A DNA stretch of 64,000 nt from Microcaecilia unicolor (GCF_901765095.1 NC_044034.1:62562339-62626338); one strand, 5' to 3'; counted from the stretch's first letter, positions 4,777 through 42,419 are shown. Numbers and translations are program-made. The notes: generated from the letters alone by a model not told the origin.

Positions 4777-4858
4777 GGCATTCTCTTTGGATATGTCTGT
4801 TGAAATGCCGTACAAGATTGAATTCATTTACAGCCTAACACACAACATCAAAATAAAG
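4777..4858 (+). CDS. Exon of host gene (VIT domain): (K)AFSLDMSVEMPYKIEFIYSLTHNIKIK
   Basis: Strong acceptor ctcttttgctgttcag|g, donor aag|gtaagt. The open frame starts at 4778, so the first nucleotide completes a split codon. Confidence 0.55.
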
Positions 4859-5493: not shown

Positions 5494-5631
5494 AAAACAG
5501 AGTGTAAAGCTGTGATCAGCACCTGCAAGGACTCTTCATTAGACAGTGATGGCTTTGATTTACGTATATGCATGTGTAAAGCCCACCCTCCCAGAATGTG
5601 GGTGGAAAAGCACCCAGAGCATGAGAGTGAG
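5494..5631 (+). CDS. Exon of host gene (end of VIT region): KTECKAVISTCKDSSLDSDGFDLRICMCKAHPPRMWVEKHPEHESE
   Basis: Acceptor tttgttcttttag|aaa, donor gag|gtaata, 138 nt, single open frame, phase 0-0. Confidence 0.55.
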
Positions 5632-6090
5632 GTAATACTTATTCTTGACAAGATCTTCAGTGTATAAATTGGATTAGCTCACTTGGTCTATGATGCTGTT
5701 CTCAGAAATTGCTGAGGTGGGGACTGTGAGTAAATATTATTTATCCCAGGTTTCCTGTAAGCCTCTCATATGGTAAATGATTACTTCGTCCTGAGAGTAA
5801 AGTTGCAGAAAATTTTTGCATCCACCATGCATTAACTGCAAAAGGTAAGGCATATTAGGTGCACCCCTCTGTGGTTTTCAGCTTTTTTGGGGAGGGCTTC
5901 TGTGCAGTGGCATGGTAGATAATGTGGATTATAGTTATCTGTGCAACAGTTAATATTGCAGGGTCATCCACTATGTTAACTACCTCAAGAAAACTGCCCA
6001 TTCCCCCACCCCAAAATGACATTTCCCATGTTAGCTGTTTACTGTGGCAATTAGCATGGGGTGCTTCCTGCATTAATCAGCTAACTCAGC

Positions 6091-7835: not shown

Positions 7836-9557
7836 CCAGTTCTCCAGTATTTTCTGTTTCCATCAGGAAAAATGGACATGCATACTTTTCTGCTCCTGGT
7901 TCTGAGGCCCTGCTCCTGGCCAGTTAGTCAACTGGTCTCCCAGTCAAGCTTGGCGGGTAAAGGTCTAGTGGGAGTCATATCTGGTGGTTCCAGATCCCTG
8001 TCTCTGTTCCCCATAGAACCCTCCCCTCTCTGATTTGCCCTCTTCTCTCTCTGGTCCCGCAGAACCCTGCCCTCTTTGTTTTCCTCTCTGCTCTCTAGTG
8101 CTGCCGGACAACATTAAAGCGGTATTAAAAAAAAAAATAAAGAAAAAAGGGCTCTCTTTATCACAGCAGCTTCCTGGGACACGGAACAGGCATTGCAGGA
8201 CTGTACTCCTGTGCAGCTCTGGGACAGCCCCCAGTCGGGGGGCTGTGAGGTGAGAGGTTTTTCAGGGGTGACAGTGGACTGGGGGGTACCCTGTATTGGA
8301 ACGGCAGTGGAGAAGCACTGGGGGCCGATTTCGGCAGTTTGAAAGAAAAGAAAGGCATGATGTCTGCTCTCCTGGCGTTTTCTACCACGGTGGGGGAAGT
8401 GCTCCTGACGGTCAAGGACTGCAGAGGTTGGGTGTGGCTTCCATCTAGCATGCTTCTGTTTGCTCCTGGCCTGGGGCTACAGTTGAGTGGCTGCTTCTTC
8501 CATGGGCTGCGGCTCCCCTGCCTTTGGCAGTGCTGGGTCAACGCTGGGATCAGTCCCGGTAATGCCGTGTCCCTGCCTTATTTGCTTGCCCTCCTCGGTG
8601 TGCCTTGGAGGGCTGGCGTGCCACTAGTTCTAGTTAAAAAAACAAAAAAACAAACACCCTCAAGATAGTCGCGTGAGCTGGGCTGCTTGTCTCCATCCGG
8701 CACTTTGTCTGGGTTCTTTGGGGGCTGTTGGCATTCCTGGAGGTTTGCTCTGCTGGTCCCCTTTGGGTCACTAAGTCAACCCGTTGCACCTCCCCCCCCC
8801 CCCCCCCCTTTTGGACCACTTGAAGTGTCTGTGCCTTCTCCTGGTCTGTCTATGCAGTCGCCCTCTGGGGCTGCGGTAGTCGCACAAGGGCTTCAGCCTC
8901 TTGTAATTTGTCCCCGATGTGGTCTTCTCCTTGGTCTTCAGGGGTCCTTGTTTCTTCGTTGTGAAGGTCTCTGACCACCGGCAGTCTCTTTGCTCAGGGC
9001 TGCCGTGGTCTCTTAGAGCTTAGGTCACAGACCTCTCATACTTTTCGGGATAGCAGCAGTAGCCTCCTTTCTGGGGACATTTTTTTTTCCTGTATGTGTC
9101 TGTGGCAGCAGCCACTTCTATTCCACAGAGTGTACTTCTCTGCACCTCTAGGGTGTTTTTTTTCTGGAGAGTCTCAGCAGCTTCAGCTGTTTTCTCTGTT
9201 GAGAGTTGCAGATGCCTCCTGGTTTTCACCGGTACGGCAGTCTCCTCTCTTTGGGATTGCGGGCGCCTCCTGGGCTTTGCAGCCTTGGCAGTCTCCCCTC
9301 TGCAGAGTTGCAGATGCCTTTGGGGCTGCACTGCTGCGGCAGTCTCCTTGCTTCTGAGTGGCGTACCTCTCCTGGTCCTCTCGGCCACAGCAGCCTCCTT
9401 TTGGGTGGAGTTGCAGATGCCTAGGGGCATCACAGCTGCGGCAGTCTCCTCTTCGGAATTGCAGACGCCTATAGGGCTTCATAGCCACAGCAATCTCCTA
9501 TATGAAGTTGCAGACACCTCCCGGGCGTCACAGCCATGGCAGTCTCCTCCTTTGGAG

Positions 9558-9745
9558 TAGCCTAGTGGTTAGTGCAGCGGACTTTGATACTAGTGAACTG
9601 GGTTCAATTCCCAGTGCAGCTTCTTGTGACTCTGGGAAAGTCACTTAACCCTCCATTGTCCCAGGTACAATAAGAACCTGTATATACTATGTAAACCGCT
9701 TTGAATGTAGTTGCAAAATCCACAGAAAGGCGGTATATCTGGTAC
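9558..9745 (+). mobile_element. tRNA-derived SINE copy (A-box/B-box GGTTCAATTCCCAG, core CTTGTGACTCTGGGAAAGTCACTTAACCCTCCATTG, LINE-like tail)
   Basis: It has a tRNA-like head with a B-box-like GGTTCAATTCC. The same family recurs at 10098-10285, 54075-54265 (+), 26560-26700 (-) and, diverged, at 49996-50112. Confidence 0.6.
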
Positions 9746-10097
9746 CAGTCCCTCCCTCCCGGTATTCACAGCCACGGCAGTCTCCTCTCTTTGGGATTGC
9801 GGGCGCCTCCTGGGCTTTGCAGCCTTGGCAGTCTCCCCTCTGCAGAGTTGCAGATGCCTTTGGGGCTGCACTACTGCGGCAGTCTCCTTGCTTCTGAGTG
9901 GCGTACCTCTCCTGGTCCTCTCGGCCACAGCAGCCTCCTTTTGGGTGGAGTTGCAGATGCCTAGGGGCATCACAGCTGCGGCAGTCTCCTCTTCGGAATT
10001 GCAGACGCCTATAGGGCTTCATAGCCACAGCAATCTCCTATATGAAGTTGCAGACACCTCCCGGGCGTCACAGCCATGGCAGTCTCCTCCTTTGGAG

Positions 10098-10285
10098 TAG
10101 CCTAGTGGTTAGTGCAGCGGACTTTGATACTAGTGAACTGGGTTCAATTCCCAGTGCAGCTTCTTGTGACTCTGGGAAAGTCACTTAACCCTCCATTGTC
10201 CCAGGTACAATAAGAACCTGTATATACTATGTAAACCGCTTTGAATGTAGTTGCAAAATCCACAGAAAGGCGGTATATCTGGTAC
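10098..10285 (+). mobile_element. tRNA-derived SINE copy (duplicate within the higher-order repeat)
   Basis: Identical to 9558-9745. Confidence 0.6.
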
Positions 10286-12666
10286 CAGTCCCTCCCTCCC
10301 GGTATTCACAGCCACGGCAGTCTCCTCTTCACAGTTGCAGACACCTCCCGGGCTTCACAGTCACGGCAGTCTTCTCTTTGGAGTTTCAAATGCTTCCCGG
10401 GCTTCACAGCCACAGCAGTCTTCTCTTCGGAGTTGCAGAGGCCTCCTGGGCTTCACAGCCACGGCAGTCTCCTCTTTGGAATCTTAGATGCCTCCTGCAC
10501 TTCACAGCTACGGTGGTCTTCCCTTCGGAGTTGCAGTCACCTCTTGGCCTTCGCAGCCGAGGCAGTTTCTCCTTTTCAGGATTGCAGTCACCTCTTGCAT
10601 TCACAGTCCCGGCAGTCTCCTCTCCAGAGATGCAGTTGCCTCCTGGTCTTCTAGCTGCTGTTTTCTCCACACTTTGGGGTTGCAGTCACCTCCTCAGCTT
10701 CACCATTATGGTAGTCTTTTCTCTTTGGAGTGGTTGTCACCTTTGGGCTTTCCAGCTATGACGGGCCTCAGTCTTCGGAGTTGCAGGTCACTCTGGTAAT
10801 CCGTAGTCTTGGCAGTCTCCCTTCCTGGAATCCAGTGGTTTTCTTCTCCAGGGCTACACACTTCTTGGGGGCAACATACAGCTCTGGAGGTCCTCACTGT
10901 TTGCAGTCTCCTCTCTTCTGAGTTGCAGTCTCTTCTCTTGGGAGTTGAGGTCCCAGTTTCTGTGGTTGCTGCTGTTCTGAATTGATGCCATTGGGGGTAT
11001 TTTCTCGGCTACAGGCTTCCCAGTCGGCTCCAGTAGTTCAGTGTTACTGCGGCAGTCTGCTTTCTCTGGAGTGGCGGACATCTTACAGCTGGAGGTTCGG
11101 TCAGCTTCTGCAGTCTTTGGACTTGGGATCTCGTTGGGAATGGCTGATTCATGCCACAGCGGCGGCCAGAGTGTTGAGCTCCTGCCAACACTTGGGGAGA
11201 GCAAGTTTCCTCACGGCTCAGCAACGTTGCTGTTGGTGAGGTGGATTTGCCTAATCCTCAGTGTGCTCATCCTAGAGCATGGACTCAGTGCAGGTCCTGG
11301 AACCTATGTCTGTGGCCAGGGAAGTGGTTCCTGGTGGGGAGGGATAGCTTCTGTCTATGGCAGTTCTTCCTTCTCTTTCGGTGATCCCCAGCCCCCCAGA
11401 GTTGACGCCGGCAGTGGCCTTGGTCCGCCAGGCAGGGCATGCACTGGGAGTTGTTCCCACAGCCGCCCTCCCTCAAGAGTTCCGCTTCCTATTTTGTATT
11501 GGGGCTGGCTACGGCATTCTTCCTTGACTTTCCATACAGAGGAGGTCCCTTCTGGAAAGAGGTTCGCCTTTGGAACCCCTTTCGAACTTTGTGTTCGGTT
11601 TGATTTGTCTGCCTTGTGCTGCGGACTCTGCCACATCTGTCCTTTGGCCCTCTCCGGAAGGCCAACAATATGGTTCATACGTTGCGTGAGGTGTTTTTGA
11701 TGTCTCTTACCTCTGGAGTGCGGATTTCTGGGCGCGGTAGTGCTGGGACCTGTTCCTCTGTTGCCGGAGGCTGGGGTCTCAGTTCTGTCCGTCCCTCTCT
11801 GCCTCAGTTGGTTTCAGTATTCCAAGTCAGTTGGTTGGCGTATCATCTGGTGTTTCGCCGGGATGTTGCATTTCGCCTCACTGAGGCTTCTGGGTGGCCG
11901 TTGGAGTTGTTTGCACTTTCTTGAGGCTTCTCCTTCCTTCTGATGTTTGGTTCGTCTGTTCAGCCCTTTTAGGGATGACAGAGGTTGAGTCTCATGGCGT
12001 CCTTGGTCACCTTTGCCTCTTGGTTGGTAGGGACGCTTACTTCAGCTGTCTCTACGTGCTGGATAGCAGCATCCTGTGCAGCATCCATCTTGTTGGCCCG
12101 GTGGCTTTTGGCAGAGCAGCAACATGGTTGTTATTGTATGCGTTTGCTGGGCTTCTCAGTGGATATTGTGGCCGTTCGGCGGGGGTGGTCAGGGCTTCGG
12201 TTCTCCAGGCAGCGGAGCTGGGGTCCCACCCTGTTAGGATTGCTTTTGAATATCCCATGTGTCCTGGAATTGTGGGAAGTAACATAATGAAGGAGAAATT
12301 AGGGCTTACCTGATGATAATTTTCTTTCCATTAGTTCTTCACAGTATTCCAGGAGCCCACCCCTGGACCTGTTTTGGTGGCAGGCTTTACAGCTTATGCA
12401 CGGGCTGTCACTCTTTTGTCTATCTCTAAAGATACCGGGGACCTTCCGAGAGTCCAATTGTTTGGTCGTTTACAGTTGTAGAGGTTTTTACATAAGTACA
12501 TAAGTACATAAGTAGTGCCATACTGGGAAAGACCAAAGGTCCATCTAGCCCAGCATCCTGTCACCGACAGTGGCCAATCCAGGTCAAGGGCACCTGGCAC
12601 GCTCCCTAAACGTAAAAACATTCCAGACAAGTTATACCTAAAAATGCGGAATTTTTCCAAGTCCAT

Positions 12667-14286
12667 TTAATAGCGGTCTATGGACTTGTCCTTTAGGAAT
12701 CTATCTAACCCCTTTTTAAACTCCGTCAAGCTAACCGCCCATACCACGTTCTCCGGCAACGAATTCCAGAGTCTAATTACACGTTGGGTGAAGAAAAATT
12801 TTCTCCGATTCGTTTTAAATTTACCACACTGTAGCTTCAACTCATGCCCTCTAGTCCTAGTATTTTTGGATAGCGTGAACAGTCGCTTCACATCCACCCG
12901 ATCCATTCCACTCATTATTTTATACACTTCTATCATATCTCCCCTCAGCCGTCTCTTCTCCAAGCTGAAAAGCCCTAGCCTTCTCAGCCTCTCTTCATAG
13001 GAAAGTCGTCCCATCCCCACTATCATTTTCGTCGCCCTTCGCTGTACCTTTTCCAATTCTACTATATCTTTTTTGAGATACGGAGACCAGTACTGAACAC
13101 AATACTCCAGGTGCGGTCGCACCATGGAGCGATACAACGGCATTATAACATCCGCACACCTGGACTCCATACCCTTCCTAATAACACCCAACATTCTATT
13201 CGCTTTCCTAGCCGCAGCAGCACACTGAGCAGAAGGTTTCAGCGTATCATCGACGACGACACCCAGATCCCTTTCTTGATCCGTAACTCCTAACGCGGAA
13301 CCTTGCAAGACGTAGCTATAATTCGGGTTCCTCTTACCCACATGCATCACTTTGCACTTGTCAACATTGAACTTCATCTGCCACTTGCACGCCCATTCTC
13401 CCAGTCTCGCAAGGTCCTCCTGTAATCGTTCACATTCCTCCTGCGAATTGACGACCCTGAATAATTTTGTGTCATCGGCGAATTTAATTACCTCACTAGT
13501 TATTCCCATCTCTAGGTCATTTATAAATACATTAAAAAGCAACGGACCCAGCACAGACCCCTGCGGGACCCCACTAACTACCCTCCTCCACTGAGAATAC
13601 TGGCCACGCAATCCTACTCTCTGCTTCCTATCTTTCAACCAGTTCTTAATCCATAATAGTACCCTACCTCCGATTCCATGACTCTGCAATTTCTTCAGGA
13701 GTCTTTCGTGCGGCACTTTGTCAAACGCCTTCTGAAAATCCAGATATACAATATCAACCGGCTCCCCATTGTCCACATGTTTGCTTACCCCCTCAAAAAA
13801 ATGCATTAGATTGGTGAGGCAAGACTTCCCTTCACTAAATCCGTGCTGACTTTGTCTCATCAGTCCATGTTTTTGTATATGCTCTGCAATTTTATTCTTA
13901 ATAATAGCCTCCACCATCTTGCCCGGCACCGACGTCAGACTCACCGGTCTATAATTTCCCGGATCTCCTCTGGAACCCTTCTTAAAAATCGGAGTAACAT
14001 TGGCTACCCTCCAGTCTTCCGGTACTACACTCGATTTTAGGGACAGATTGCATATTTCTAACAGTAGCTCCGCAAGTTCATTTTTTAGTTCTATTAATAC
14101 TCTGGGATGAATACCATCAGGTCCCGGTGATTTACTACTCTTCAGCTTGCTGAACTGACCCATTACATCCTCCAAGGTTACAGAGAATTTGTTTAGTTTC
14201 TCCGACTCCCCCGCTTCAAATATTCTTTCCGGCACCGGTGTCCCCCCCCAAATCCTCCTCGGTGAAGACCGAAGCAAAGAATTCAT
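12667..14286 (-). CDS. CR1-like reverse transcriptase ORF (539 aa, FADDTKLF active-site block and conserved C-terminal tail)
   Basis: The protein has RT motifs (PGPDGIHPRVL, YLDFQKAFDKVPH, FADDTKLF) and a C-terminal ...FKKGLDRFLKDKSIDRY end typical of CR1/L2 ORF2. Confidence 0.8.
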   Translation of the reverse strand: MNSLLRSSPRRIWGGTPVPERIFEAGESEKLNKFSVTLEDVMGQFSKLKSSKSPGPDGIHPRVLIELKNELAELLLEICNLSLKSSVVPEDWRVANVTPIFKKGSRGDPGNYRPVSLTSVPGKMVEAIIKNKIAEHIQKHGLMRQSQHGFSEGKSCLTNLMHFFEGVSKHVDNGEPVDIVYLDFQKAFDKVPHERLLKKLQSHGIGGRVLLWIKNWLKDRKQRVGLRGQYSQWRRVVSGVPQGSVLGPLLFNVFINDLEMGITSEVIKFADDTKLFRVVNSQEECERLQEDLARLGEWACKWQMKFNVDKCKVMHVGKRNPNYSYVLQGSALGVTDQERDLGVVVDDTLKPSAQCAAAARKANRMLGVIRKGMESRCADVIMPLYRSMVRPHLEYCVQYWSPYLKKDIVELEKVQRRATKMIVGMGRLSYEERLRRLGLFSLEKRRLRGDMIEVYKIMSGMDRVDVKRLFTLSKNTRTRGHELKLQCGKFKTNRRKFFFTQRVIRLWNSLPENVVWAVSLTEFKKGLDRFLKDKSIDRY

Positions 14287-14749
14287 TTAATTTCTCCGCT
14301 ACGGCTTTGTCCTCATTGATCGCCCCTTTAACACCATTTTCGTCCAGTGGCCCAACTGACTCTTTGGCCGGTTTCCTGCTTTTAGTGTATCTAAAAAAAT
14401 TTTTACTATGTATTTTTGCTTCCAACGCTAATTTCTTCTCAAAGTCCTTTTTTGCCCTCCTTATCTCCGCTTTGCATTTGGCTTGGCATTCCTTATGATC
14501 TATCCTGTTACTTTCAGTTGGTTCTCTTCTCCACTTTCTGAAGGATTGTTTTTTGGCTCTAATGATTTCCTTTATCTTACTGTTTAGCCACGCCGGCTGA
14601 CGTTTAGTCTTTTTTCCCTTTTTTCTAATACGTGGAATATATTTGTCCTGAACCTCCAGGATGGTGTTTTTAAACAGCATCCACGCCTGATGCAAGTTTT
14701 TTACTCTGCGAGCTGCTCCTTTCAGTCTTTTTTTCACCATTTTTCTCAT
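14216..14749 (-). pseudogene. Upstream part of CR1 ORF2 (linker between EN and RT) in a different frame
   Basis: It overlaps the RT ORF by about 70 nt in another frame, so a frameshift has broken the single ORF2. The copy is probably inactive. Confidence 0.5.
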
Positions 14750-14789
14750 TTTGTCGTAATCACCTTTTCTATAGTTTTATTCCTTCTGC

Positions 14790-14955: not shown

Positions 14956-15502
14956 GAAATCAAATAGAAGAATAATGCAGATGTACACTGAGATCTGAGG
15001 TGTATGCCTAGTGGTGCTATTGAAATATAAAATAGTAGACGTTATAGGCAGTATTGACTTATATGTGGCACACATTCTTAAACTTTTGAAACTTTAAAAG
15101 TGTATATTTTTCACATTCTGATGTCTAAAAAGTACAATTCAAAATGCATGAAAGTATGAGCTTGCTTTACTGATTTACACTGCATACTCTACATTTTCAA
15201 TGTAAAAGAATAATTATAGAAATATTCAAAAGGTCTTAGGCAACTGTGTAGCCTGGTGATTGGGTAAGCAGGCTCCTCCTGTACCCACTGCTTGAGTGAA
15301 AGTACCCATGCTGGGGGGTCACGTGATGGCAGGAGCCTAGACGGACGTCTCGAGGCTGCTCTCCTCCTCATCGCTTATAAATCAGCTGATTTAATGTGCT
15401 CAAACCCCCGATCTGGTCCCTCAAAACATCGTCCAGTACAAGGTAGCTTGGGCTGCATCGATTGAGCAATAAAGGAGAAAGATCAGAAGCGGCTTTCAGG
15501 GT

Positions 15503-16339
15503 ATGCCGGCAAAGACCCCGCGTACTCAGAAAGGGCGCGGAACCCCCCACGTGGCTAAGATGGCGTCTGGAAAGGAGAAAGGAGAGGCGACCCAGAGTCA
15601 GGATCTGCCGGTGGTAGCCATACAAGACGCAGCGATACAAGAGATAATGAAGCACATGGCAGCAGTTCTGGATGACAAGCTGTCGGCGCTGCATGTCTTT
15701 ATGGACGAGATGAAAGAAAGCATGGCAGCACAAAGCACCCGCATACAACTGGCAGAGGAACGAATATCACAGCAAGAGGATCTGGTGAATAATGTGAGTT
15801 CTCAAATGTCTGCTCTGGAGAAGAGGTGTAAACTGCTGGAAGAGCGGGTAGAAGATCATGAGAACCGGAGCAGGCGGAATAATATCAGGCTGGTGGGAAT
15901 ACCGGAATCGGTCAAAGATAAAGAGCTCTGGGACTTGGTAGAAGTCTGGCTGCCGAAAGAGCTTGGGATTGAGTCAGAAGGGCAACGTCTCAAAGCAGAG
16001 CGGGTGCATCGGATCGGAGCGCTTAAAGAACATAGCAGTAAGTCATGCCCGGTAATTGCTCGTATTCTCAACTATGCTGAGAAAGCCCAGCTGATGGAAA
16101 AGTATCGCCAGAAGAGAACCCTGACTTATCAGGGGACAGGCATGCTGATGTTTCAAGATTTCTCGCCGCGGGTGTCAGAGCTAAGAAAACGAGTGTCTCC
16201 ATACTGCTCTCAGCTCTACAACAAAGGGATCCGGTTCTCGCTGCAGTACCCAGCAAAGGTGAGAGTGCTGCATGAAGGTCGTGTTCTATTCATGGAGCAG
16301 CCAGAAGAATTGCGCTCATTTCTGGAGCGGTTGCAGTGA
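15503..16339 (+). CDS. L1 ORF1 protein (278 aa), nucleic-acid-binding chaperone with a coiled-coil N-terminal half
   Basis: It lies upstream of ORF2 in the same element. It has a heptad-rich segment (LSALHVFMDEMKESMAAQSTRIQLAEERISQQEDLVNNVSSQMSALEKRCKLLEERVEDHENRSRRNNIRLVGIPE), followed by a C-terminal RRM-like or CTD-like region typical of L1 ORF1p. Confidence 0.8.
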   Translation: MPAKTPRTQKGRGTPHVAKMASGKEKGEATQSQDLPVVAIQDAAIQEIMKHMAAVLDDKLSALHVFMDEMKESMAAQSTRIQLAEERISQQEDLVNNVSSQMSALEKRCKLLEERVEDHENRSRRNNIRLVGIPESVKDKELWDLVEVWLPKELGIESEGQRLKAERVHRIGALKEHSSKSCPVIARILNYAEKAQLMEKYRQKRTLTYQGTGMLMFQDFSPRVSELRKRVSPYCSQLYNKGIRFSLQYPAKVRVLHEGRVLFMEQPEELRSFLERLQ

Positions 16340-17335
16340 CAGAGTGCAATGTTAGAGTGGTTGAAGGGTGCCGGCTTGAAAACACCTTTGATGACACGTG
16401 GAGTGCCGCCGGAGACATTATGCCAGGCAGGCTAGGATTTATTTCTTGTTATTTTTGACGTGCAGGGGATTGCAAGCAGCAGAACCATTAAAGATTGATT
16501 ACTGTAAACAACAAGGAGTGGAGCCCGGGGCATTCTTAAACGGGAGACATTGTTGATTTGGAAGGAGAGGCTGTTTGTGGTTTTTTTTTTTTTTTTTTTT
16601 CCCCAGCTTTATCTGGATGCCAGCTAGAAGACTGAAGACTCAGTGGGGAAGTTGTGAGTTGCCTGGGGACGATTTGTAATTTAAAGAGGCTTGTTGCAGT
16701 GAAGCCTGTGTTCTTTTTTATAGGCTGCACGAGGGAGAGAGAGAGAGAGAAAAAAAAGGAACACAATGGACTATAGTTTGAACAAGTTTGGAGGGGTACT
16801 GTTATTTGTATAATTTGCCTCTGATGGGATCGTTTTACTTTTCTGCTGTCGTATTGGGGGAGTTGAAGGGAAAATGTTGAAACGGGTGGTGGGTGTTTAA
16901 GAAAGGGAAATGCAGCGCTCAGGCAAGCTGAGGATCCTTTTCAGGGGGGGGGAGGGGAGCAGCTTTCTCTTAGGGGAGGGTTGTAACACTGGTTGTTCTA
17001 AAGGGGAGGGTGGGAAGGGACTTGAGGGTGTGGACACAGGTAGGGGGGAAGGGGGATGGGAGGGGAGAAGTGGGAGGAAGGAGCTATTTGACTGGATGGA
17101 GTGAATGGTACACAGAGTGTGGATGTAGCAAACGAAGGGAGGGACAGGGATGGGAAAGAGAGGGAGGGGAGGGGGAGGGGCTGGGGTGGGGGGAAGGCTC
17201 CTGGAGAAATAAGGAATACTGTTACATGGAGGAGATTGGTACCGAGGCAACACCTGGAAAGGGAGGGGGTGGTGAGCTGGGACATCACCCCTTGTTCTCG
17301 GACATAAGGCTGCATATCGCCTTTCGATCTGACAG
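16340..17335 (+). other. L1 inter-ORF spacer (about 1 kb) containing (T)22, (GA)n and GGGAGG-rich low-complexity DNA
   Basis: It lies between the ORF1 stop (16339) and the ORF2 start (17336). ORFs 16897-17384 on both strands are low-complexity artefacts. Confidence 0.6.
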
Positions 17336-20300
17336 ATGGGTAGTTTGAGAATAGGATCATTAAATGTTGATGGTATTCACTCACCGGTTAAGCGGACTAA
17401 AATTTTGGCATACTGTAATAAAATGAAAGTTGATGTGATGTTTTTACAGGAGACTCATCTCTCACAACAAGAACATCGGAAGTTACAAAAAGGGTGGGTT
17501 GGGGAGGTAGTGTCATCTTCCTTTAATAACAGACAAAGGGGGGTGGTTATATTATTCCATAGAAGGCACCATGTTAGCATGCATAAATTAGTACAAGACC
17601 CAGAGGGTCGGTTTGTCATATGGTGGGGAGAGTTTGCAGGGCAGAGGGTGGCCTTATGCTCCATATATGCGCCAAATGTATATTCCCATTCTTTCTTTTC
17701 TGGTCTTTTAGCTCATTTGGTATCAGTTAGTGGGTACAAATTGGTGCTGGGGGGAGATTTTAATATTACTGCAGACCCCTTGATAGATTGCAAGCCAGCA
17801 AAGCCGCGGCCTCCAGCATGGAAAGATAAAGGGATTAACTTTCTAGTACAAGAGCTAGGGCTCCTGGATATCTGGCGGATCTTACATCCAGAATCATATG
17901 ACTACACTTTTTTTTCTCAGGTACATGGGGTATATGCACGGCTCGATTATTTACTAGTTGATGCAACCCTTATGTCGAAAGTGCAGGCGGCAGATATAGT
18001 GGACGGGGCAGTGTCGGATCATTGTTTGATTTGGGCAGACATCCAGTGGCACCAAGGCAGTGCATCAAGGATGTGGCGTATGAATCCAACGTATTTGGAG
18101 CCTGAGTTTCGTAGTTTTTTGTTGAAGATGTGGGACAATTACCTAATGGAAAATGACCCGGAATCAGTAGACCCTATAACTTATTGGGAAGCGGGGAAGG
18201 CCGTGATGCGGGGGCATATTATCGCCTATGGGGCAAAATTAAACAGGGAGCGTAATAGTAGATTAATTGCCTTATCGAGCCATCTGCAACAGTTGAGGGG
18301 GAGGCATGTACGGCAGAGGGAAGACGAGATAAAAAAGGAATATTTGGACACTCGCCGGCAAATTAATGATATTTTGAATGCGCGCGCGGCTCAGGATATC
18401 AGCTTGTATAAATTTAATATGTATAGATGGGGGAATAAGGCGGGGAGATTGATGTCGACCCTGGTAAAAGGCAGAGGGGCCAAAAAAATCATAACGAAGG
18501 TGAGATCTCCTGGAGGGCAGGTAGTGGCCACATCTGAGGGCATCCAGGAAGAGTTTGTCAAATTCTATCAGGCACTGTATAATGCAGGAGAGACAGATCG
18601 GACCCAGCGGGAATTATTTTTTCAGAATCTTCCTTTACCGCAGTTATCGCAGGAGCAGAGAGATCAGTTAAATGCGCCGGTGAAGGGAGAGGAAGTACTT
18701 CAGGCAGTGAAACGCCTTAAGTTGGCTAAGGCCCCCGGTCCGGACGGCCTAGGGCCTGAATTTTATAAGATATTAGGTGCCAACGTAGGACCCCCTTTTC
18801 AAGAATTATGTCATCATCTCTGCACAACTGGGGAGGCGGGCGGTAGACTTACACATGCACACATAGTGGTACTCCCTAAGCCTGGGCGAGATGAGGAATT
18901 GCTGGGTTCCTACAGGCCCATATCGCTCCTTAATCAAGACATAAAGCTTTTTGCCAATATTATGGCAAATAGGTTGGGGAGGGTCTTACCTGGCCTGGTT
19001 CACTCGGATCAGGCGGGATTCGTGCCAGGCCGATATGCATCTTCCAATATTATGAGAGCCTTGACAGTGTTGCAGAAAGGGGGGGGCAAACCCGGAGATG
19101 CGATCATTACAAGTTTGGACGCGGAAAAAGCATTTGATAAGATCTTGTGGGACTATCTATTTTGGGTGTTACCGCAATTTGGTATCATGGGAGCTTTCTT
19201 AGGAGGAATCCGCGCTTTATATAGCCATCCCACAGCTCAGATATTAATAAATGGAGCATTGTCATCTGTCTTTTTCTTAAAGCGGGGCACACGGCAAGGG
19301 TGCCCGCTCTCCCCGATGCTATTTGTGCTGTCCTTAGAACCCTTTGCTATCAAAATTCGACAGACGGACAAAGTTCAGGGAATTAAAATGGGATCCCAAG
19401 AATTTAAAATTAATCTGTTTGCAGATGACATGCTTATATATCTAGATAGAGCATCCGTGACTGTTCCTATTCTTATAGACTTAATTGTCCAATTTGGGTC
19501 TTTCTCTGGTCTATGTATTAATTTTGATAAGTCTGAGGCTTTGCCGGTGTCCTCCCCTTGTGCGTGTAGGCAGCTCCACACGTTTCCCTTAGCTTGGTCG
19601 ACCGGAACTTTAAAATATTTAGGAGTGTATTTGCACGCGGATATGAGAGTGGTATATCGTCGCAATATACAGGACAAGCTAGATGGCATTAAAAAACTTT
19701 GCCACAGATGGAGAGATTTGCCCCTTTCTTTATTGGGGCGTGTAGCGTTAGTAAAAATGGTTATGTTGCCCAAGATTCTATACCCCTTACAGATGATGCC
19801 ATTTTGGATAACACGGAAAGATGAACTATACTATAAGGGGTTTATTGGTACTTTTCTTTGGGCGGGAAAGCGGGCCAGGATAAGTTTTGCTAAATTGACG
19901 CTTGCTAGGAATAAGGGAGGATTAAATCTTCCGGACCTGCGGTTATACAATGTGGCAGCGCTACTTAGGTGGATTTTTGAGCTCCATTCTGGGTCTGCTA
20001 AATATGCCCCAAAAGGTATCTGGCAAGGTGAGGTGCTGCCATATTCAGTGTTTAATAGTCTACAAGTACAGGGAAGCTCGAAAGGAGACCTCCAGTGTTT
20101 GCTTCAGCCTCTGAGAAAGGCCTGGAATTGGTGGCGGGGTGGACTGGGAAAGGCCACAGGACCATCTCCGTTTCTGACAGTAGTAGATAACCCCTCATTT
20201 CCAGCGGGTCAGGGGGCGTCGCGGTTCAAAGTGTGGGCCAAAAAGGGGTGTCGTTATGTGGGACATTTTACGGTGGAGGGACAGGGGATATTCCCCACAT

Positions 20301-21151
20301 TTGAGCAGGCTCAGAACTCTTGGAGCTTGGGGCAGGAAGATTATTTCCCTTTTCTTCAATTGAAGCACTATTGTGCGACCTTGTCTTCTAGGAAAGAGGG
20401 GGGGCCTAGTTTTTCGCGGCTGGATAAGATGTTTTGTCAGATGCCGAACGCTGCAAACAAATTGGCGGTATGGTATTCTATAGGAAGGGAGCAAAAGGAG
20501 GACTTCTTCATTGCTGGCCTGGCAAAATGGTGGGGTGAACAAGTGGGGGAGGAAATCACGGGTAACATGTTGGCAACCTACTTTGCAGCGTCATTTAAAC
20601 TGACAACTAGTGCAAATTTGCAGGAGATGCAGTTTCGGTTGCTACATGGTGCTTTTATAACAAGAGAGAAAGGAAAGCGGATGGGGCTTTGGGAAGATGA
20701 CACTTGCATAAGATGTAAACACAGCAAAGGCACCTTAGTACATACCTTTTTGGAGTGTACTGAGTTGTATGTATTCTGGAAAGGGGTGCTGCAAGTGTTG
20801 GAGCATTTGTTGGCACAGGCTGTAGAGTGGTCCTACCGGATTTTGCTGTTGGGGGATGAGTCTCAGTTGCAAGAACAGGGGTTGCAGCCATCTCAGGTCC
20901 GGTTTGTATGTGTAGCGCTGATGCTGGCACGAAAAACGGTATTAGCACACTGGATTTTGGAAGACCCGCCGGCTATCAACCAGTGGTGGACTAGAATGCT
21001 GCAGATGGCTAGATGGGAAACGGAACGCAGTAAGTCCACTGGAGGGAGAGGTCAGGCATATGGTTCTTTATGGAAGCTGTTTGAGGTACTGTATTCTGCA
21101 AAGAAGGAATCTCCAGGAGCGGGGAGGGGGGTGGGGGTTAGACGGGTATAA
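17336..21151 (+). CDS. L1 ORF2 protein (1271 aa): APE-type endonuclease + reverse transcriptase + Cys-rich C-terminal domain, uninterrupted
   Basis: The N-terminus has the EN motifs (LNVDGIHSPVKR, FLQETH, SDHC). The RT block includes FADDMLIY, and the C-terminal Cys/His-rich domain follows. The reading frame is intact. Confidence 0.9.
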   Translation: MGSLRIGSLNVDGIHSPVKRTKILAYCNKMKVDVMFLQETHLSQQEHRKLQKGWVGEVVSSSFNNRQRGVVILFHRRHHVSMHKLVQDPEGRFVIWWGEFAGQRVALCSIYAPNVYSHSFFSGLLAHLVSVSGYKLVLGGDFNITADPLIDCKPAKPRPPAWKDKGINFLVQELGLLDIWRILHPESYDYTFFSQVHGVYARLDYLLVDATLMSKVQAADIVDGAVSDHCLIWADIQWHQGSASRMWRMNPTYLEPEFRSFLLKMWDNYLMENDPESVDPITYWEAGKAVMRGHIIAYGAKLNRERNSRLIALSSHLQQLRGRHVRQREDEIKKEYLDTRRQINDILNARAAQDISLYKFNMYRWGNKAGRLMSTLVKGRGAKKIITKVRSPGGQVVATSEGIQEEFVKFYQALYNAGETDRTQRELFFQNLPLPQLSQEQRDQLNAPVKGEEVLQAVKRLKLAKAPGPDGLGPEFYKILGANVGPPFQELCHHLCTTGEAGGRLTHAHIVVLPKPGRDEELLGSYRPISLLNQDIKLFANIMANRLGRVLPGLVHSDQAGFVPGRYASSNIMRALTVLQKGGGKPGDAIITSLDAEKAFDKILWDYLFWVLPQFGIMGAFLGGIRALYSHPTAQILINGALSSVFFLKRGTRQGCPLSPMLFVLSLEPFAIKIRQTDKVQGIKMGSQEFKINLFADDMLIYLDRASVTVPILIDLIVQFGSFSGLCINFDKSEALPVSSPCACRQLHTFPLAWSTGTLKYLGVYLHADMRVVYRRNIQDKLDGIKKLCHRWRDLPLSLLGRVALVKMVMLPKILYPLQMMPFWITRKDELYYKGFIGTFLWAGKRARISFAKLTLARNKGGLNLPDLRLYNVAALLRWIFELHSGSAKYAPKGIWQGEVLPYSVFNSLQVQGSSKGDLQCLLQPLRKAWNWWRGGLGKATGPSPFLTVVDNPSFPAGQGASRFKVWAKKGCRYVGHFTVEGQGIFPTFEQAQNSWSLGQEDYFPFLQLKHYCATLSSRKEGGPSFSRLDKMFCQMPNAANKLAVWYSIGREQKEDFFIAGLAKWWGEQVGEEITGNMLATYFAASFKLTTSANLQEMQFRLLHGAFITREKGKRMGLWEDDTCIRCKHSKGTLVHTFLECTELYVFWKGVLQVLEHLLAQAVEWSYRILLLGDESQLQEQGLQPSQVRFVCVALMLARKTVLAHWILEDPPAINQWWTRMLQMARWETERSKSTGGRGQAYGSLWKLFEVLYSAKKESPGAGRGVGVRRV

Positions 21152-21670
21152 ACTAAAAAGTTAGAGGGAAGGGCAGAGGAGATATATTTATGTTTAAAAT
21201 GGCCTCATTTTGAAAGTTGTATTATGTTAAGGTTATACAATAAGGTTTGTTAGCTGACACCTGTAGTCAATGTATTCATTGTATTCATAGGTTATTATCG
21301 GCTGCTAGATATTGGAAATATGGGAAATAGTTGGCTTCATTGAGCCGGAATGTGATGTTCAAATGTTACATGTCTTTTCTTCTAATAATAAAGATATTTT
21401 CAAAAAAAAAAAAAGAAAGTACCCATGCTCTCAGGGGGGGGGGGGGGGCAGTTTTTGGTGCCTCATTTTTCACAGGTAGGCAGGTAGGTGTTTACCCATG
21501 GAAAAAGATTTGAAAAACTGCTCTCTTGAAGTTTCTGGTTGAGTAAATTTAGGGGGACTTTATTTCATGACCCATCTGGTTGCCATCTGGGAACCAGATC
21601 AATATCTTGTATACAATATAGGGTAGGTTCGTCATTGCTGATGGGGCTGTTTTGTTTTTTCTTCCTGTAG

Positions 21671-21869
21671 GCATGTATGCTGGTGTTTCAACCCTATTTT
21701 GAACCATCCACTTTATTTGAAGTGGATGATTCCAGTGAGATTGTTATTTGTTTGGATTGCTCTACCTCCATGGAGGGCTTGATATTCCAGCAGGCCAAGC
21801 AGATTGCTCTTCTTGTGCTGAAGTCTCTTAGTGACCGTCACCAAATAAACCTTATCAGGTTTGGCACAA
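21671..21869 (+). CDS. Exon of host gene, start of vWA domain with MIDAS motif: ACMLVFQPYFEPSTLFEVDDSSEIVICLDCSTSMEGLIFQQAKQIALLVLKSLSDRHQINLIRFGT
   Basis: Acceptor cttcctgtag|gc, donor aca a|gtaagt (ends in phase 1). ICLDCSTSM is the DxSxS MIDAS motif of a von Willebrand A domain, followed by the typical hydrophobic strands. Confidence 0.6.
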
Positions 21870-22139
21870 GTAAGTTGGTTCTTTCTGTTTTCTGCCAGAG
21901 TATTTGGTTACATATTTTCATAATGGTTAAGTTGAAAGATGACCTGTTTTAACTTACAGCGATAGCTCTCTCAAAGAGCTATCACTGTTAATTCCATATA
22001 ATCTACCTGCATCATGATGTCTACCAGTCCCTTTTCCCTCATAAAATGTGTTAAGATTTCTTTTGAAAACATTTCAAGTCAAATGGGTACAGAACAAGTG
22101 AATAGGAGTTAGGAATTAAAAGCAGTTTCAAAAAGGTAA

Positions 22140-22987: not shown

Positions 22988-23175
22988 ATTGCCACACCCA
23001 CGATGGGTAACACTGACTTGTGGAAACCTTTGCGCTCTTTGAGTTTGTTAGCACCTTCCGACCGTCTGCGCAACATTCTGCTAATATCTGATGGCCACAT
23101 TCAGAATGAGAGCCTTACTTTCCAAATTATAAAGAAGAGTATCAAGCACACAAGGTTATTTGCCTGTGGTGTTGG
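22988..23175 (+). CDS. vWA exon of host gene: IATPTMGNTDLWKPLRSLSLLAPSDRLRNILLISDGHIQNESLTFQIIKKSIKHTRLFACGV(G)
   Basis: Acceptor tttttttttctcag|att, donor gg|gtaggt (ends in phase 2). GNTDLW...ILLISDG is the conserved central part of a vWA domain. Confidence 0.6.
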
Positions 23176-23940
23176 GTAGGTACAAAGTAAATCTTCTCTT
23201 TCTGAGTAAAGGATCATGGATTTGATATACTGCCTTTGTGGTACAGTCAGTGGTTTACATTTATTATAAAACAATGACAGTGGCTCCCTTAACTGTATAT
23301 GTTCACTGTGGGACCTCAGATAGTATCCACTTATATTATAAATCAGCTCCCACTATCTTCTGTCAGTGTCAGTTCAAACAATCATTAATCAATATATTTC
23401 TCTTGGTGACCTCAGCTGTGCACATTACCAGTTTTACTGAATGGCAATGGGTTCTGCCCACCTTTCTTCATTGGTTCACACTATTAATGCATTTATTTTT
23501 TATCATTATTATTAACATTTAATTTTTGTAGTCAAATGCTCATCTTATATAGATATATCGGACCCAGGGGTTGATGTTACTGTCCGACATGCATGTTTCA
23601 CCCTTGTCAGGGCTGTTTCAAGGACTACCCCCTATGAAAAATACATAAAGATTAACTTCAACGGTATAGTGACAGAGATATAAAGTTAATTTCTCATACC
23701 ACCCCACCGCTATATACCGCTAAACGGTAGAGGGGATGTATATAGCGGTGGGGTGGTATGAGAAATTAACTTTGTATCTCTGTCACTATACTGTTGAAGT
23801 TAATCTTTAAGTATTTTTCGTAGGGGGTAGTCCTTGAAACAGCCCTGACAAGGGCGAAACATGCATGTCGGACAGTAACATCAACCCCTGGGTCCGATAT
23901 ATCTATATAAGATGAGTATTTGACTACAAAAATTAAATGT

Positions 23941-26340
23941 TACCTAGAGCCCTCTTATATAAGAGTAGACGGGAGGGAGGGTTGGGGATGCCCAACCTTC
24001 AATGGTATTATTGTGCAGCACAGTCTAGGGCGGCAGTAGATTGGTTTCGACGAGAGGACCACAAGCTGTGGGTTGACATTGAACAAAATCTGGTGGGTTC
24101 TCGTAAGTTGGGACATCTAATGTGGATCGCAGGTAATGATAGGGGTCGGGTGGATAAATTTCCACCTACAGTACAAGCTACTTTTCACTACTGGGACCTC
24201 CTGTTTCCCCAGCAGCAACCTTTGGTGTCAGGACTAGCCCCGATAGTGGATAACCCTCTGTTTGCCCCGGGTATAGGAAACACTACATTCTGTAAATGGG
24301 CGGAGGCGGGTTTGGACATGTTGGGTCAGTTACATGTGGGGGAGACTATTGTACCCTTCGAGACTTTTGTGACTGACTTCGGTCTTTCACGGGGGGATCG
24401 ATACGCCCACTTGCAACTACAACACTTTTTGAAAGGGAAGGCGTATATGGGATGCCTGAAATGGGATACTCACCCGTTGGAGGAGGTATGTGTAGATCCC
24501 AAGGGCACGAAAGGATTGATTTCCAAACTGTACACTTACTTAGTGAAAGGCTCCAAAACATCCCTATTGCATAGAAAACGGTGGGAACAGGAGCTACAGT
24601 TCTCGTTATTTATTATTTATTTATTTGTTGCATTTGTATCCCACATTTTCCCACCTATTTGCGGGCTCAGTGTGGCTTACAATAAGACTTGAATAATAGA
24701 AATACATTTGTTACAACTAAGTTATGGATTACATTGAACAGTGTTGTGCGAGGCATTCGAATATCGTTGGTAGTATAACAATGGGACAAAACACAGAGAC
24801 ATTAGAAAGAGACAATGGGAAAAAAGGGCATTATTAGGCGCCTAGACATATAGTGTACATAGTTCCGTGGACGAATGTATGGTTGACTGGATAAAGGGAT
24901 GATGGATCAGATGTGGATGTGTATTGCATTGTGGACAGTGAGTAGTCTCTATGTGTATTGGCTCTTTCCATAAGTTTGTTCGAACAGGTGTGTCTTCAGT
25001 AGTTTACGGAAGGAGGCTTGTTCGTTGATCATTCTTAGGTTGCGTGGTAATGTATTCCAAGACTTCGTGCTCTTGTAGGAAAAGGTTGACGCGTGTATCG
25101 TCTTGTATTTCAAGCCCCTGCAGGTTGGGTAATGAAGGTTGAGGTGAGTTCGGGATGATCTTTTGGCGTTTCTAGGTGGTAGGTTTATTAAATCAGACAT
25201 GTACGCTGGGGCTTCACCGTAAATGATCTTATGGACTAGTGTGCAAGTTTTAAAAGTAACGCGGTCCTTGAGTGGAAGCCAATGTAGTTTCTCTCGTAGT
25301 GGTTTTGCCCTTTCATATTTAGGTTTTCCGAAGATGAGCCTGGCTGCTGTGTTCTGGGCTGTTTGAAGTTTCCTTAGTATTTGCTCTTTGCAGCCAGCGT
25401 ATAATGAGTTGCAGTAATCCAAGTGGCTAAGGACGAGGGATTGCACTAGGCTGCGGAAGACGAATCTTGGGAAGAATGGTCTAATTCTTTTCAATTTCCA
25501 CATGCTGAAGAACCCGGAGACGGGTTGGCTGACCTTAGAGAGGAGTCTGTTGCGGGTCTCTCGTGCAGTGGACATGCAGGAGAATGCTGTAAAGGTATTC
25601 TGTAGATGGTACCTGACCCCGGTTAGATTACACCATATGTTTCCGCAGGTTTCAAAGGGCTGCTGGAGGAATTGTGGGGGGGAGGGGACTATGGGTCACA
25701 TATGGTGGCTATGTCCTAAGGCACAGGCCTATTGGAGGGGTGTGCACTCTCGACTTCAAGTATGGCTCGGCAGTTCTGTGCGGTGGCATCCTTTGATCTT
25801 CCTATTAGGACAGAGACCTGAGGGCATTACATCTGATCAGTGTGGATTGGTAAGACAGTCCTTGGTGGCGGCCCGAGTCCACTTGGCCTGAAATTGGAAA
25901 AGACCACAGGTACCCTCAATGAGTGGTTGGCTTACTAAAGTGAGTTACATATGTGAAATGGAGAGACTGACTGCAGCGAAAGGGAGAAATTTGCCAAAAT
26001 GGCAAAAGATATGGACTCCTTTTGAAAGCACACAAAGGGAACTGGATAACAAATGTAATTTTAGCAGTCTTTACTGATAAGGATGGGAAGACGGGGTGGG
26101 GGGAAGGGTGGGGGGGGGAGGGTCAAGGCAGGTGAAGGGAGGGAGGATCTGTTGTATAAAATTAAAAATGATAGAAGTAACATAAGCTACTGTTAAAGCA
26201 TTGTGTTGGTGATGGTGCATTTCTTTACTAGATACCCAATGTTAGATTCATATTGTGTTAAGAAAGTGTAAGGTCTCTCATTGAGTTTGGACTGGTTATC
26301 CTATGCAATGATCAATAAAATCTTCTAAATATTAAAAAAA
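23941..26340 (+). mobile_element. 5'-truncated L1 copy (ORF2 3' half + C-terminal domain + 3'UTR + poly-A at about 26328-26340) with a SINE tail and a CR1-like fragment nested inside it (24590-25575, minus)
   Basis: ORF 23937-24692 is homologous to ORF2 residues about 800-1050 of the intact L1. ORF 25502-25891 is homologous to the ORF2 Cys-rich C-terminus. AATAAA lies upstream of the A-run. The flanking TSD is TTAAATGTTA (23931-23940 and 26341-26350). Confidence 0.7.
24949..25575 (-). pseudogene. CR1/L2-like ORF2 C-terminal fragment (…LDYCNSLYAGC…LQTAQNTAARLI…FRKLLKTHLFEQTYGKSQYT)
   Basis: This is the conserved C-terminal domain of CR1/L2-type LINEs, on the minus strand and nested in the L1 fragment. 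Confidence 0.6.
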
Positions 26341-29260: not shown

Positions 29261-29889
29261 TGATATAATGTTAATGTGAATTACCCACATATCATTTACC
29301 CTCTTATACTTGGGGCCTACTATTAAGCACCAAGTGCGCACCTGGTTTATCAAAGACTAGCACTAATGCATGTCAGAGGCACCACTAATTGGCATTTATG
29401 TGATGTATTCCCGCTTATGTGGAAACAGGAAGTTGCATCAGAAGGAAGGCTGTGGGGCCAACATGAGCAGTGTATTAGTTGCTGCTCGCTGCAGGTGAAA
29501 ATCTGCTATTTAAAAGGTATGCGGGGGAGGGGGCATGTTTGAGAGACCGTATGGTATGCAGGTGAGAGATGGAGAGACCAAATCACTTGTGGGACAGGGC
29601 GGAGTTCTTCTGCCCACCCATCTTGGGCCCAAACTCACCCAAAATTGGATGTCTGGCTACGCCCATGGCGTTTTTGTATAGCCCTGTTTGATTTATGGGC
29701 ACTTCATATTATCTGCTCATAAGACCGTGATTACTCTTTACTGATACCCTTCCATTCACATATAATTTAGCTTTTCGCTCTTTCCTGTGTGTTATTTTGG
29801 GCGGATTTTGTGCAGATAGTATACATGGAAAATGTTTGACAGATATCCAAATTATAATCATTTGTAAATTAATGTTAAAATTTGATCAG

Positions 29890-29989
29890 TCCCACAGCAA
29901 ATCGGCATATGCTCAGATCTTTGGCGCAGTATGGAGCTGGAGCATTTGAATATTTTGAAACAAAATCTAAGTATAACTGGAAGGATAAA
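29890..29989 (+). CDS. vWA exon of host gene: (G)PTANRHMLRSLAQYGAGAFEYFETKSKYNWKDK
   Basis: Acceptor tgatcag|t (1 nt completes the GG codon), donor aaa|gtaagtgag, phase 0 end. It follows the GxG....A..TGG..E(F/Y) pattern at the C-terminal end of vWA domains in VIT-vWA proteins. The acceptor is weak, and a nearby cccacag acceptor is out of frame. Confidence 0.45.
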
Positions 29990-30404
29990 GTAAGTGAGAT
30001 ATATTACTTTTGCTTTTTCTATAGCATTGATATCCTTAACCACAACTTGCATGATTTCTTAGGGGATAATTTTATAAGGCATTTTCCACTTCAAAAGTGT
30101 GTGTAAAATGTAGAAAATGACTCTCGTGAAATTGTGTGGGTACCTATGCGTTTACAAGTGTGCAAGCCAATAAGAGCAGACATACTTTTATGCAATTTGC
30201 GCATAGATGTTCACAGAGGTAGCGCTGTGGAACTGGGAGTTAAGAGGTATGTGCAGCTGAATAAGTGGTGCAGTGGTTAGAACACAGAATTTATAAGATA
30301 CGTGTGTAACCGCAGAGAGTACAAGCACATAGTTGCACCTCAGAGCAAGTATTACTTTGTGCCTGAGTATTTGTGTACTCTTGGGAATGAATCCAGGAGC
30401 TTAT

Positions 30405-36662: not shown

Positions 36663-36673
36663 ACTTTGCCTCT

Positions 36674-42249: not shown

Positions 42250-42419
42250 GTAAGATTCTTTTATTTGTTAAGAACATAAAATAATGCCAAGTTCCCTCGA
42301 TCCCTGGCATTTTGTATTTGACAGCGGACAATCCGTTTCACAAGTACCTGGAAAATCTCAAATAATCAAATTGCTCTTAGCTCATTTCAAGAGCTAAGCA
42401 ATGGTTTATCATTTTTTTG

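Follow-up and report, generated by a model that had tools for sequence, protein, structure and literature searches.

The 64,000-nucleotide stretch of Microcaecilia unicolor DNA analysed here (GCF_901765095.1 NC_044034.1:62562339-62626338, hereafter the window) carries at 15313-21414, on the plus strand, what is very probably a young, structurally complete and autonomous insertion of the L1 clade of long interspersed nuclear elements (LINEs). The element proper spans 6,102 bp, both copies of its target-site duplication (TSD) excluded, and is of the non-mammalian type represented by the clade 2 L1 elements of frogs, fish and lizards. Its arrival would have followed target-primed reverse transcription. 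Specifically, the endonuclease of ORF2p, the protein of its second open reading frame (ORF), would have nicked the bottom strand at 5'-CTTTC/ACTC-3', and a full-length L1 RNA would have been reverse-transcribed from its poly-A tail onward, with the freed 3' end as primer. Cutting of the second strand, staggered by 15 bp, would then have generated the 15-bp TSD, and the copy would have come to lie, in sense orientation, in an intron of about 16 kb of a PARP4-like gene with VIT and VWA domains. An earlier reading made from the sequence alone had placed an L1 at 15298-21429; the element is indeed present, and its limits are drawn more narrowly here, since that range takes in both TSD copies. Its parts, in window positions, are the following.

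15298-15312, plus strand: 5' copy of the TSD, GAAAGTACCCATGCT, an exact 15-mer
15313-15502, plus strand: 5' untranslated region (5'UTR), 190 bp, 52% GC, 9 CpG
15503-16339, plus strand: ORF1, 837 bp, 278 amino acids (aa), open, 51% GC
16340-17335, plus strand: inter-ORF region, 996 bp, 49% GC, 36% G
17336-21151, plus strand: ORF2, 3,816 bp, 1271 aa, open, 46% GC
17336-~18050, plus strand: APE-type endonuclease of ORF2p, aa 1-~238, with N10, E39, D141/N143, D204 and D228-H229
18875-19630, plus strand: Pfam RVT_1 match of ORF2p, aa 514-765, with motif A D595 (SLDAEKAFD) and FADD at 695-698
20705-20758, plus strand: CCHC motif of ORF2p, CX2CX8HX4C, aa 1124-1141, shared by relatives at the aligned position
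21152-21401, plus strand: 3'UTR, 250 bp, 32% GC, with the short repeats TGTATTCAT and ATATGGGAA
21387-21392, plus strand: AATAAA polyadenylation signal, 9 nt before the poly-A tail
21402-21414, plus strand: poly-A tail, an uninterrupted A13 read from the sequence
21415-21429, plus strand: 3' copy of the TSD, GAAAGTACCCATGCT, an exact 15-mer

The junctions provide the most direct record of the insertion. In the whole window there are exactly two copies of the 15-mer GAAAGTACCCATGCT, each abutting one end of the element; for one 15-mer at a fixed position, about 1e-9 would be expected by chance. Rebuilding the empty site from these clean, TSD-matched junctions yields the sensible-looking sequence CTTGAGTGAAAGTACCCATGCTCTCAGGGGGG. 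The bottom-strand nick implied by the TSD is close to the L1 endonuclease consensus TTTT/AA. Between the junctions, ORF1 and ORF2 lie in a common frame on the plus strand without interruption, and the element as a whole has a GC content of 47.0%, with A making up 25-31% of its parts (26.7% in ORF2). As such, the perfect TSD, the poly-A tail, the polyadenylation signal and the two uninterrupted frames of 278 and 1271 aa that the sequence-only reading had described are all borne out by the junction sequences and the ORF calls.

The base composition of the element further points to a recent arrival. The observed-to-expected CpG ratio is 0.58 over the whole element, rising to 0.70-0.73 in the 5'UTR and ORF1; it is only 0.12 in the 500 bp adjoining upstream, 0.32 in the 3 kb downstream and 0.42 in the rest of the window. 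When neutral decay was simulated by a Monte-Carlo model, with 10% indels and CpG sites treated as 8-fold hypermutable, both ORFs survived intact with a probability of 0.31 at a divergence of 0.2%, of 0.045 at 0.5% and of 0.003 at 1%, which suggests a neutral divergence below about 0.5%. The 15/15 match of the TSD, the pure A-tail, the retained CpG and this simulated bound therefore indicate an evolutionarily young insertion, in keeping with the very recent event proposed earlier. Youth by itself does not establish that the insertion is polymorphic.

Encoded proteins and 5' terminus

The assignment to L1 is carried above all by ORF2p. Residues 5-1223 align to residues 9-1225 of the human L1 ORF2p chain in 8sxt with an E value of 4e-152, the best among all solved structures, whereas R2 proteins score far lower (E 4e-20); the endonuclease (EN) region matches the crystal structures of human L1 EN, 1vyb and 8sp5, at about 4e-30. 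Pfam recognizes Exo_endo_phos (1.1e-10), RVT_1 (5.4e-32) and, weakly, zf-RVT. In an alignment with 22 homologues, all catalytic positions and the CCHC motif are conserved, so that the EN, reverse transcriptase (RT) and Cys domains previously named in ORF2p are present with every motif intact. Residues 1-1200 of ORF2p were also used as a query against 1.84 billion representative proteins; its identity to anything in two protein libraries is 31-39%, and all top matches share the L1-like EN plus RT layout. This low identity is not counted as novelty, because vertebrate transposon proteins are largely masked from such libraries.

ORF1p, in turn, matches human L1 ORF1p (2ykp/2yko) over aa 75-274 with an E value of 5.5e-13 in phmmer, a stretch that spans the end of the coiled coil, the RNA recognition motif (RRM) and the C-terminal domain (CTD), and mouse ORF1p (2ldy) with an E value of 2.9e-06. 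Together with the ORF2p alignment and the conserved catalytic motifs, this supports the central proposal of the sequence-only reading, namely an intact full-length L1. The coiled coil (aa 39-122) consists of about 12 uninterrupted heptads, all in one register; hydrophobic residues fill 69% of a/d positions in the best register, compared with 27% elsewhere. It is followed by the RRM (RSRRNNIRLVGIPE) and the CTD (YPAKV); the strings RSRRNN.R..G.PE and YPAK are kept. None of the Pfam L1 ORF1 models, Transposase_22 included, matched ORF1p even at E <= 1, and its L1 membership thus rests on the alignment to the solved human and mouse proteins. By its sequence, ORF1p is predicted to be a type II protein, an RNA chaperone of the coiled-coil trimer type. 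The second in-frame ATG of ORF1, at codon 20 (15560), stands in the better Kozak context (GCTAAGATGG); if it is used, ORF1p may have 259 aa and the 5'UTR 247 bp.

The element begins with the string GGGGGGTCACGTG. A G6 run (15313-15318) is followed by the palindromic E-box TCACGTGA (15319-15326) and by ATGGC (15326-15330, element positions 14-18), giving GGGGGGTCACGTGATGGC as the 5'-terminal motif. ATGGC has the same core as the YY1 site CAAGATGGC found near the start of mammalian L1 elements (PMC5381506), and conserved 5' termini have been described for frog L1 (GGGGGCGTGGCC) and lizard clade 2 L1 (GGGNGCTGCGCATGC) (PMC5381506). Because a start made of a G-run and a short palindrome resembles these frog and lizard termini, it argues, weakly, that the copy is not 5'-truncated, and the element appears to retain its true 5' end. 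The 190-bp 5'UTR would then be a putative internal promoter; within it lie a TATAAA at 15376-15381 (element position 64) and an AATAAA at 15468-15473. With both proteins intact and an apparently true 5' end, the copy is therefore a plausible source element; that it is competent for retrotransposition and that it is polymorphic are likewise plausible.

Relatives among vertebrate L1 elements

The placement in the L1 clade draws on the ORF1p and ORF2p alignments, the motifs, the poly-A tail and the TSD, and is based on scores against solved structures rather than on a tree. Within L1, a comparison with non-mammalian elements changes how two of its features are to be judged. In clade 2 L1 elements of frogs, fish and lizards, a 5'UTR of 91-267 bp and an inter-ORF region of 257-1,032 bp are the rule (PMC5381506), and Boissinot & Sookdeo 2016 infer both to be ancestral states (PMC5381506). 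Since these published ranges include the short 5'UTR and the spacer of about 1 kb seen here, neither is an anomaly, and calling them unusual is a mammal-centred judgement; outside mammals, the combination should not be flagged. The sequence-only reading was thus right about the lengths (190 bp and 996 bp) and about the low complexity of the spacer, with its repeats and G-runs, but not in regarding the 5'UTR as oddly short and the spacer as unusually long. Likewise, the 5'UTR holds 9 CpG compared with about 7 on average in frog, fish and lizard clade 2 elements (PMC5381506), and CX2CX8HX4C is the form of the Cys motif found in non-mammalian L1 (PMC5381506). The dimensions of the element compare with those of Xenopus L1 (PMC5381506) as follows.

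Whole element: here 6,102 bp, 47% GC; Xenopus 5,470-6,340 bp, 38-48%
5'UTR: here 190 bp, 52% GC; Xenopus 91-162 bp, 44-60%
ORF1: here 837 bp, 51% GC; Xenopus 873-1,113 bp, 43-54%
Spacer: here 996 bp, 49% GC; Xenopus 257-1,032 bp, 34-50%
ORF2: here 3,816 bp, 46% GC; Xenopus 3,225-3,855 bp, 38-47%
3'UTR: here 250 bp, 32% GC; Xenopus 98-365 bp, 26-42%

Every GC value and the lengths of the whole element, the inter-ORF region, ORF2 and the 3'UTR fall within the Xenopus ranges, whereas the 5'UTR lies just above and ORF1 just below them. The average GC profile reported for frog L1 is 55% in the 5'UTR, 50.5% in ORF1, 43.7% in the inter-ORF region, 43.3% in ORF2 and 35% in the 3'UTR (PMC5381506). Beyond architecture and size, the element shares with L1 of Xenopus tropicalis a weak A-bias, a G-run at the 5' terminus, the CX2CX8HX4C motif, a regular heptad coiled coil in ORF1p and the number of polyadenylation hexamers within the ORFs (7, against a frog mean of 7.5; PMC5381506). 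It differs from the frog elements in its 5'-terminal motif (GGGGGGTCACGTGATGGC here, GGGGGCGTGGCC there) and in an inter-ORF region that is markedly G-rich and repeat-bearing, while most frog inter-ORF regions are without repeats (PMC5381506). At the protein level, identity to Xenopus L1 is 27-30% over ORF2p and 38-42% in the RT core, where frog L1 proteins score about 38-43%, and identity to L1 proteins of Podarcis muralis is about 27-30%, with 33-36% in the RT core. Clade 2 L1 of Anolis carolinensis has a similarly short 5'UTR (216-238 bp) and G-rich stretches that raise the GC content of its inter-ORF region (PMC5381506), but that region measures 270-384 bp and the elements are AT-rich, at about 35% GC versus 47% here (PMC5381506).

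Human LINE-1 (L1HS; 8sxt/8uw3/8c8j and 2ykp) shares the order of genes and domains, an ORF2p that aligns collinearly along about 1,220 residues, the same catalytic residues (N, E, D-N, D and D-H in the endonuclease, the D of motif A, and FADD), the coiled-coil/RRM/CTD layout of ORF1p with its conserved YPAK, and the hallmarks of target-primed reverse transcription. It departs from the present element in a CpG-island-like 5'UTR of about 900 bp (190 bp here), in the Cys motif (CX3CX7HX4C in human, CX2CX8HX4C here) and in a sense strand that is strongly A-rich, which that of the caecilian element is not. The spacer measures tens of bp in human and 26-82 bp in most mammals (PMC5381506), compared with 996 bp here, and the G-rich polypurine tract, located in the 3'UTR in mammals, is found here within the spacer and again at the extreme 3' end of ORF2.

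Among labelled relatives, the nearest is an L1 fragment embedded in a "toll-like receptor 2" gene model of Microcaecilia unicolor itself (P0099), with 52% identity over 201 aa and 55% over 168 aa of the RT core. Both share the lineage-specific strings KLAKAPGPDGL, SY.PISLLNQDIK and LVHSDQ.GF. P0099 is a fragment only, contained in a chimeric gene prediction, and an identity of about 50% points to a related lineage rather than to the same family. Among the best full-length matches is a fish-type L1 on the Logan contig SRR5149434_534 (L001), whose ORF2p (P0002) is 34% identical at 97% coverage and whose ORF1p is 29% identical and collinear with that of the element; it is the closest full-length relative with ORF1 on its contig. 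It resembles the element in a 5'UTR of about 225 bp, an inter-ORF region of 637 bp and FADDML in place of YADD, and differs from it in a zebrafish-type GGACTTCCGGTT 5' terminus, a T-rich spacer and deep divergence.

Within the window itself, degraded L1-like remnants at 50487-52514 (minus strand) and 23949-26026 (plus strand) are mostly 23-29% identical to the intact ORF2p at the amino acid level. Because these remnants belong to other lineages, several divergent L1 lineages occur within one gene, a coexistence that is typical of non-mammalian vertebrates.

Translation, activity and competing explanations

The inter-ORF region raises the question of how ORF2 is translated. Its sequence includes a T20 run (16581-16600), a GA repeat (16731-16750) and polypurine G-runs, and three G-quadruplex-type motifs lie within it (17003-17193), a fourth being placed at the very end of ORF2. 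Its 14 AUGs each open only a short upstream ORF, and 11-15 stops per frame interrupt all three frames; no long ORF is found there, and its longest open stretch has no Pfam match. Because ribosomes scanning past the ORF1 stop would meet 14 AUGs in 996 nt, we infer that ORF2 would be translated from a bicistronic RNA by a non-scanning route, either shunting or one resembling an internal ribosome entry site (IRES), as has been argued for long L1 spacers generally (PMC5381506). A nested short interspersed element or other captured sequence in the spacer was considered and dropped for lack of evidence: no flanking direct repeat was found beside the T20 run that would mark a nested insertion, no part of the spacer except the poly-T run has a similar sequence elsewhere in the window, and no Rfam match was obtained anywhere in the window.

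A bolder reading would combine these features into a source element that is still live and belongs to an uncatalogued L1 lineage. In it, a G-quadruplex-rich, AUG-laden spacer would force IRES-like or shunting translation of ORF2, and its insertion may still be segregating and may cause PARP4-like transcripts to be polyadenylated too early, 241 bp short of the next exon. This extended proposal is rather unlikely as a whole; if true, the live element would offer a natural system for studying how L1 ORF2 is translated, a question not yet settled.

Several observations weigh against a complete, active element. The inter-ORF region shows no excess of RNA structure (fold z = +0.5 versus shuffles), which leaves the IRES idea without direct support, and the TATAAA at element position 64 together with the AATAAA in the 5'UTR is not obviously favourable to full-length transcripts. 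Additionally, the copy stands alone. Searches of the window with blastn and tblastn returned only unrelated LINE debris at 23-29% amino acid identity over the longer alignments, an exact look-up of ORF1p and ORF2p in the contig collection gave no match, metagenome contigs scanned for a 29-mer of DNA and for a protein pattern yielded no copy of the family, and the nearest ORF2p among the 1.84 billion representatives is only 31-39% identical. Since no second family copy was retrieved, statements about the activity of the family, its consensus and its 5' terminus rest on one copy.

These points lend most weight to the possibility that the copy is intact in structure but was dead on arrival, either 5'-truncated and hence promoterless or carrying inactivating missense changes, so that it would be a recent passive copy rather than a source. 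With a single family member at hand to define the 5' end or a consensus, with a TATAAA from which a conventional start site would fall within the element, and with inactivating missense changes being possible, this is a serious contender, although on balance an improbable one; in mammals, moreover, most new L1 insertions are not active themselves. Against it stand the G-run and short palindrome at the start, which are like the frog and lizard clade 2 termini, the 190-bp 5'UTR, which lies inside the range of full-length non-mammalian L1 (PMC5381506), and the integrity of every catalytic and structural motif. The age of the insertion could alternatively be questioned, as long open frames alone are compatible with purifying selection on an old, domesticated or co-opted pair of L1 genes. 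Selection on proteins would not, however, preserve a 15/15 TSD, an A13 tail and the CpG of a non-coding 5'UTR, and a bicistronic arrangement in which 1 kb of non-coding spacer separates the two ORFs typifies a transposon rather than a host gene, which makes domestication very improbable.

Equally faint is the chance that a consensus-like L1 was placed or collapsed into the intron during assembly. The window does contain, 12 kb upstream of the element, a perfect spacer-less palindrome of 634 bp (3188-3821), and because such a structure resembles those that long-read assemblies sometimes create, local errors are conceivable; yet the junctions of the element are clean, its matching TSDs rebuild a sensible empty site, the window holds no N, and the flanking exons are collinear with PARP4. 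Least probable of all is that a member of another LINE clade (Tx1-like, CR1, RTE or R2) has been mislabelled, as might be suspected from the failure of the Pfam L1 ORF1 models and from the 31-39% identity of ORF2p to any database protein. The full-length score against human L1 ORF2p far exceeds that against R2, ORF1p matches human L1 ORF1p, the poly-A tail, AATAAA and a TSD of variable length are L1-type hallmarks, and the CR1-like element also present in the window reaches only 28% identity across 249 aa of RT.

Read as a young and complete non-mammalian L1 insertion, the copy is an ordinary finding that adds one case to a well-known class; intact young L1 copies are to be expected in the genomes of amphibians, reptiles and fish, in which many divergent lineages are active at low copy number. 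Its value lies in providing a clean, full-length reference copy, both ends of which are defined, for an L1 lineage that is poorly covered in protein databases; such a copy can be used in repeat libraries. It is also a candidate for functional work on non-mammalian L1, specifically on the translation of ORF2 across a 1-kb spacer with 14 AUGs and three G-quadruplex-type motifs, and a possible sense-oriented insertion polymorphism near a PARP4-like splice acceptor.

Host gene and other repeats in the window

PARP4 fragments from tuatara, sturgeon, a bird, a gecko and camel, together with the unlabelled fragment P0125, map collinearly by tblastn to plus-strand exons on both sides of the element, with a best identity of 58% (tuatara fragment), and Pfam matches of the host gene comprise VIT and VWA. 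The PARP4-like exons located in this way are listed below.

664-771, plus strand: PARP4-like exon
4125-4298, plus strand: PARP4-like exon
4778-4867, plus strand: PARP4-like exon
5494-~5661, plus strand: upstream flanking exon, 47-51% identical to the PARP4 fragments P0121, P0125 and P0127
21671-21871, plus strand: downstream flanking exon, start of the VWA domain (Pfam VWA 1.8e-05)
22988-23176, plus strand: PARP4-like exon
29885-30040, plus strand: PARP4-like exon
39765-39968, plus strand: PARP4-like exon
42166-42252, plus strand: PARP4-like exon
47558-47641, plus strand: PARP4-like exon
49770-49865, plus strand: PARP4-like exon
54816-54947, plus strand: PARP4-like exon

Because residues 63-123 (5494-5673) and 109-174 (21671-21871) of the tuatara fragment bracket the element, the L1 lies in sense orientation in one intron of about 16 kb, and the intronic position and orientation given by the sequence-only reading therefore hold. 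The upstream flanking exon is preceded directly by the acceptor TTTTAG, and its 3' boundary is approximate, with candidate GT donors at 5660 and 5662. The downstream acceptor AG (21669-21670) follows a polypyrimidine tract and is located 241 bp past the end of the 3' TSD.

Attenuation or premature polyadenylation of host transcripts by sense-oriented, A-rich mammalian L1 elements is established (PMC5381506, citing Han et al. 2004 and Perepelitsa-Belancio & Deininger 2003). Some attenuation of PARP4-like transcripts by the present element is plausible. Polyadenylation hexamers number 10 in sense and 8 in antisense, and because of this near-equal count and an A content of 25-31%, the effect on the host would be expected to be smaller than for mammalian L1.

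The same intron holds two further features close to the element. A G15 homopolymer at 21434-21448 starts 4 nt past the 3' TSD; a link to the G6 start of the element and the G-rich tracts of its spacer is not established, and the proximity is probably a coincidence. About 520 bp upstream of the L1 lies an antisense CR1-like LINE fragment (12670-14776, minus strand) with a 539-aa open RT frame (RVT_1 1.1e-36), a CpG observed-to-expected ratio of about 0.7 and 28% identity to the L1 RT. Elsewhere, a DIRS-like retroelement at ~32057-38196 (plus strand) is apparently intact, with inverted termini (155 nt at 95% and 40 nt at 100%) and open frames of 600 aa, 668 aa (RVT_1 4.5e-19 plus an RNase H-like domain) and 212 aa. 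Its first 2 kb have a CpG observed-to-expected ratio of 0.9, its best relatives, in Pleurodeles waltl and Chrysemys picta, are 48-50% identical, and it looks as young as the L1. Such a mixture of LINE and DIRS repeats, like the frog-like composition of the L1, would fit an amphibian and perhaps a caecilian (PMC10195157).

The palindrome at 3188-3821 sits in the PARP4-like intron between the exons 664-771 and 4125-4298 and consists of two 317-nt arms that are 100% complementary with 0 nt between them; it represents either a genuine foldback or an artefact of long-read assembly. A GC-rich block (53-55%) with a strong T-over-A skew extends over ~8000-12000 and contains tandem repeats of 49, 98 and 102 bp (9267-9450 and 10295-10651) as well as a higher-order duplication of about 540 bp, in which the translated segments at 9475-9645 and 10015-10185 are identical. 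The stretches at 43136-43665, 58114-58417 and 61892-62405 translate into near-identical strings (such as GGHPRFP.VVIW..GALF.DLFM.KK.P.KVTQ) and seem to represent a single family of interspersed repeats, with its copies in different introns. Finally, a 252-codon open stretch at 55956-56711 (plus strand) belongs to the PARP4-like gene as it runs into proline/alanine-rich low complexity (PPPPPPPPGLPL, APAPPCPGAPAAP), and frames are open on both strands there because of the low-complexity repeat.

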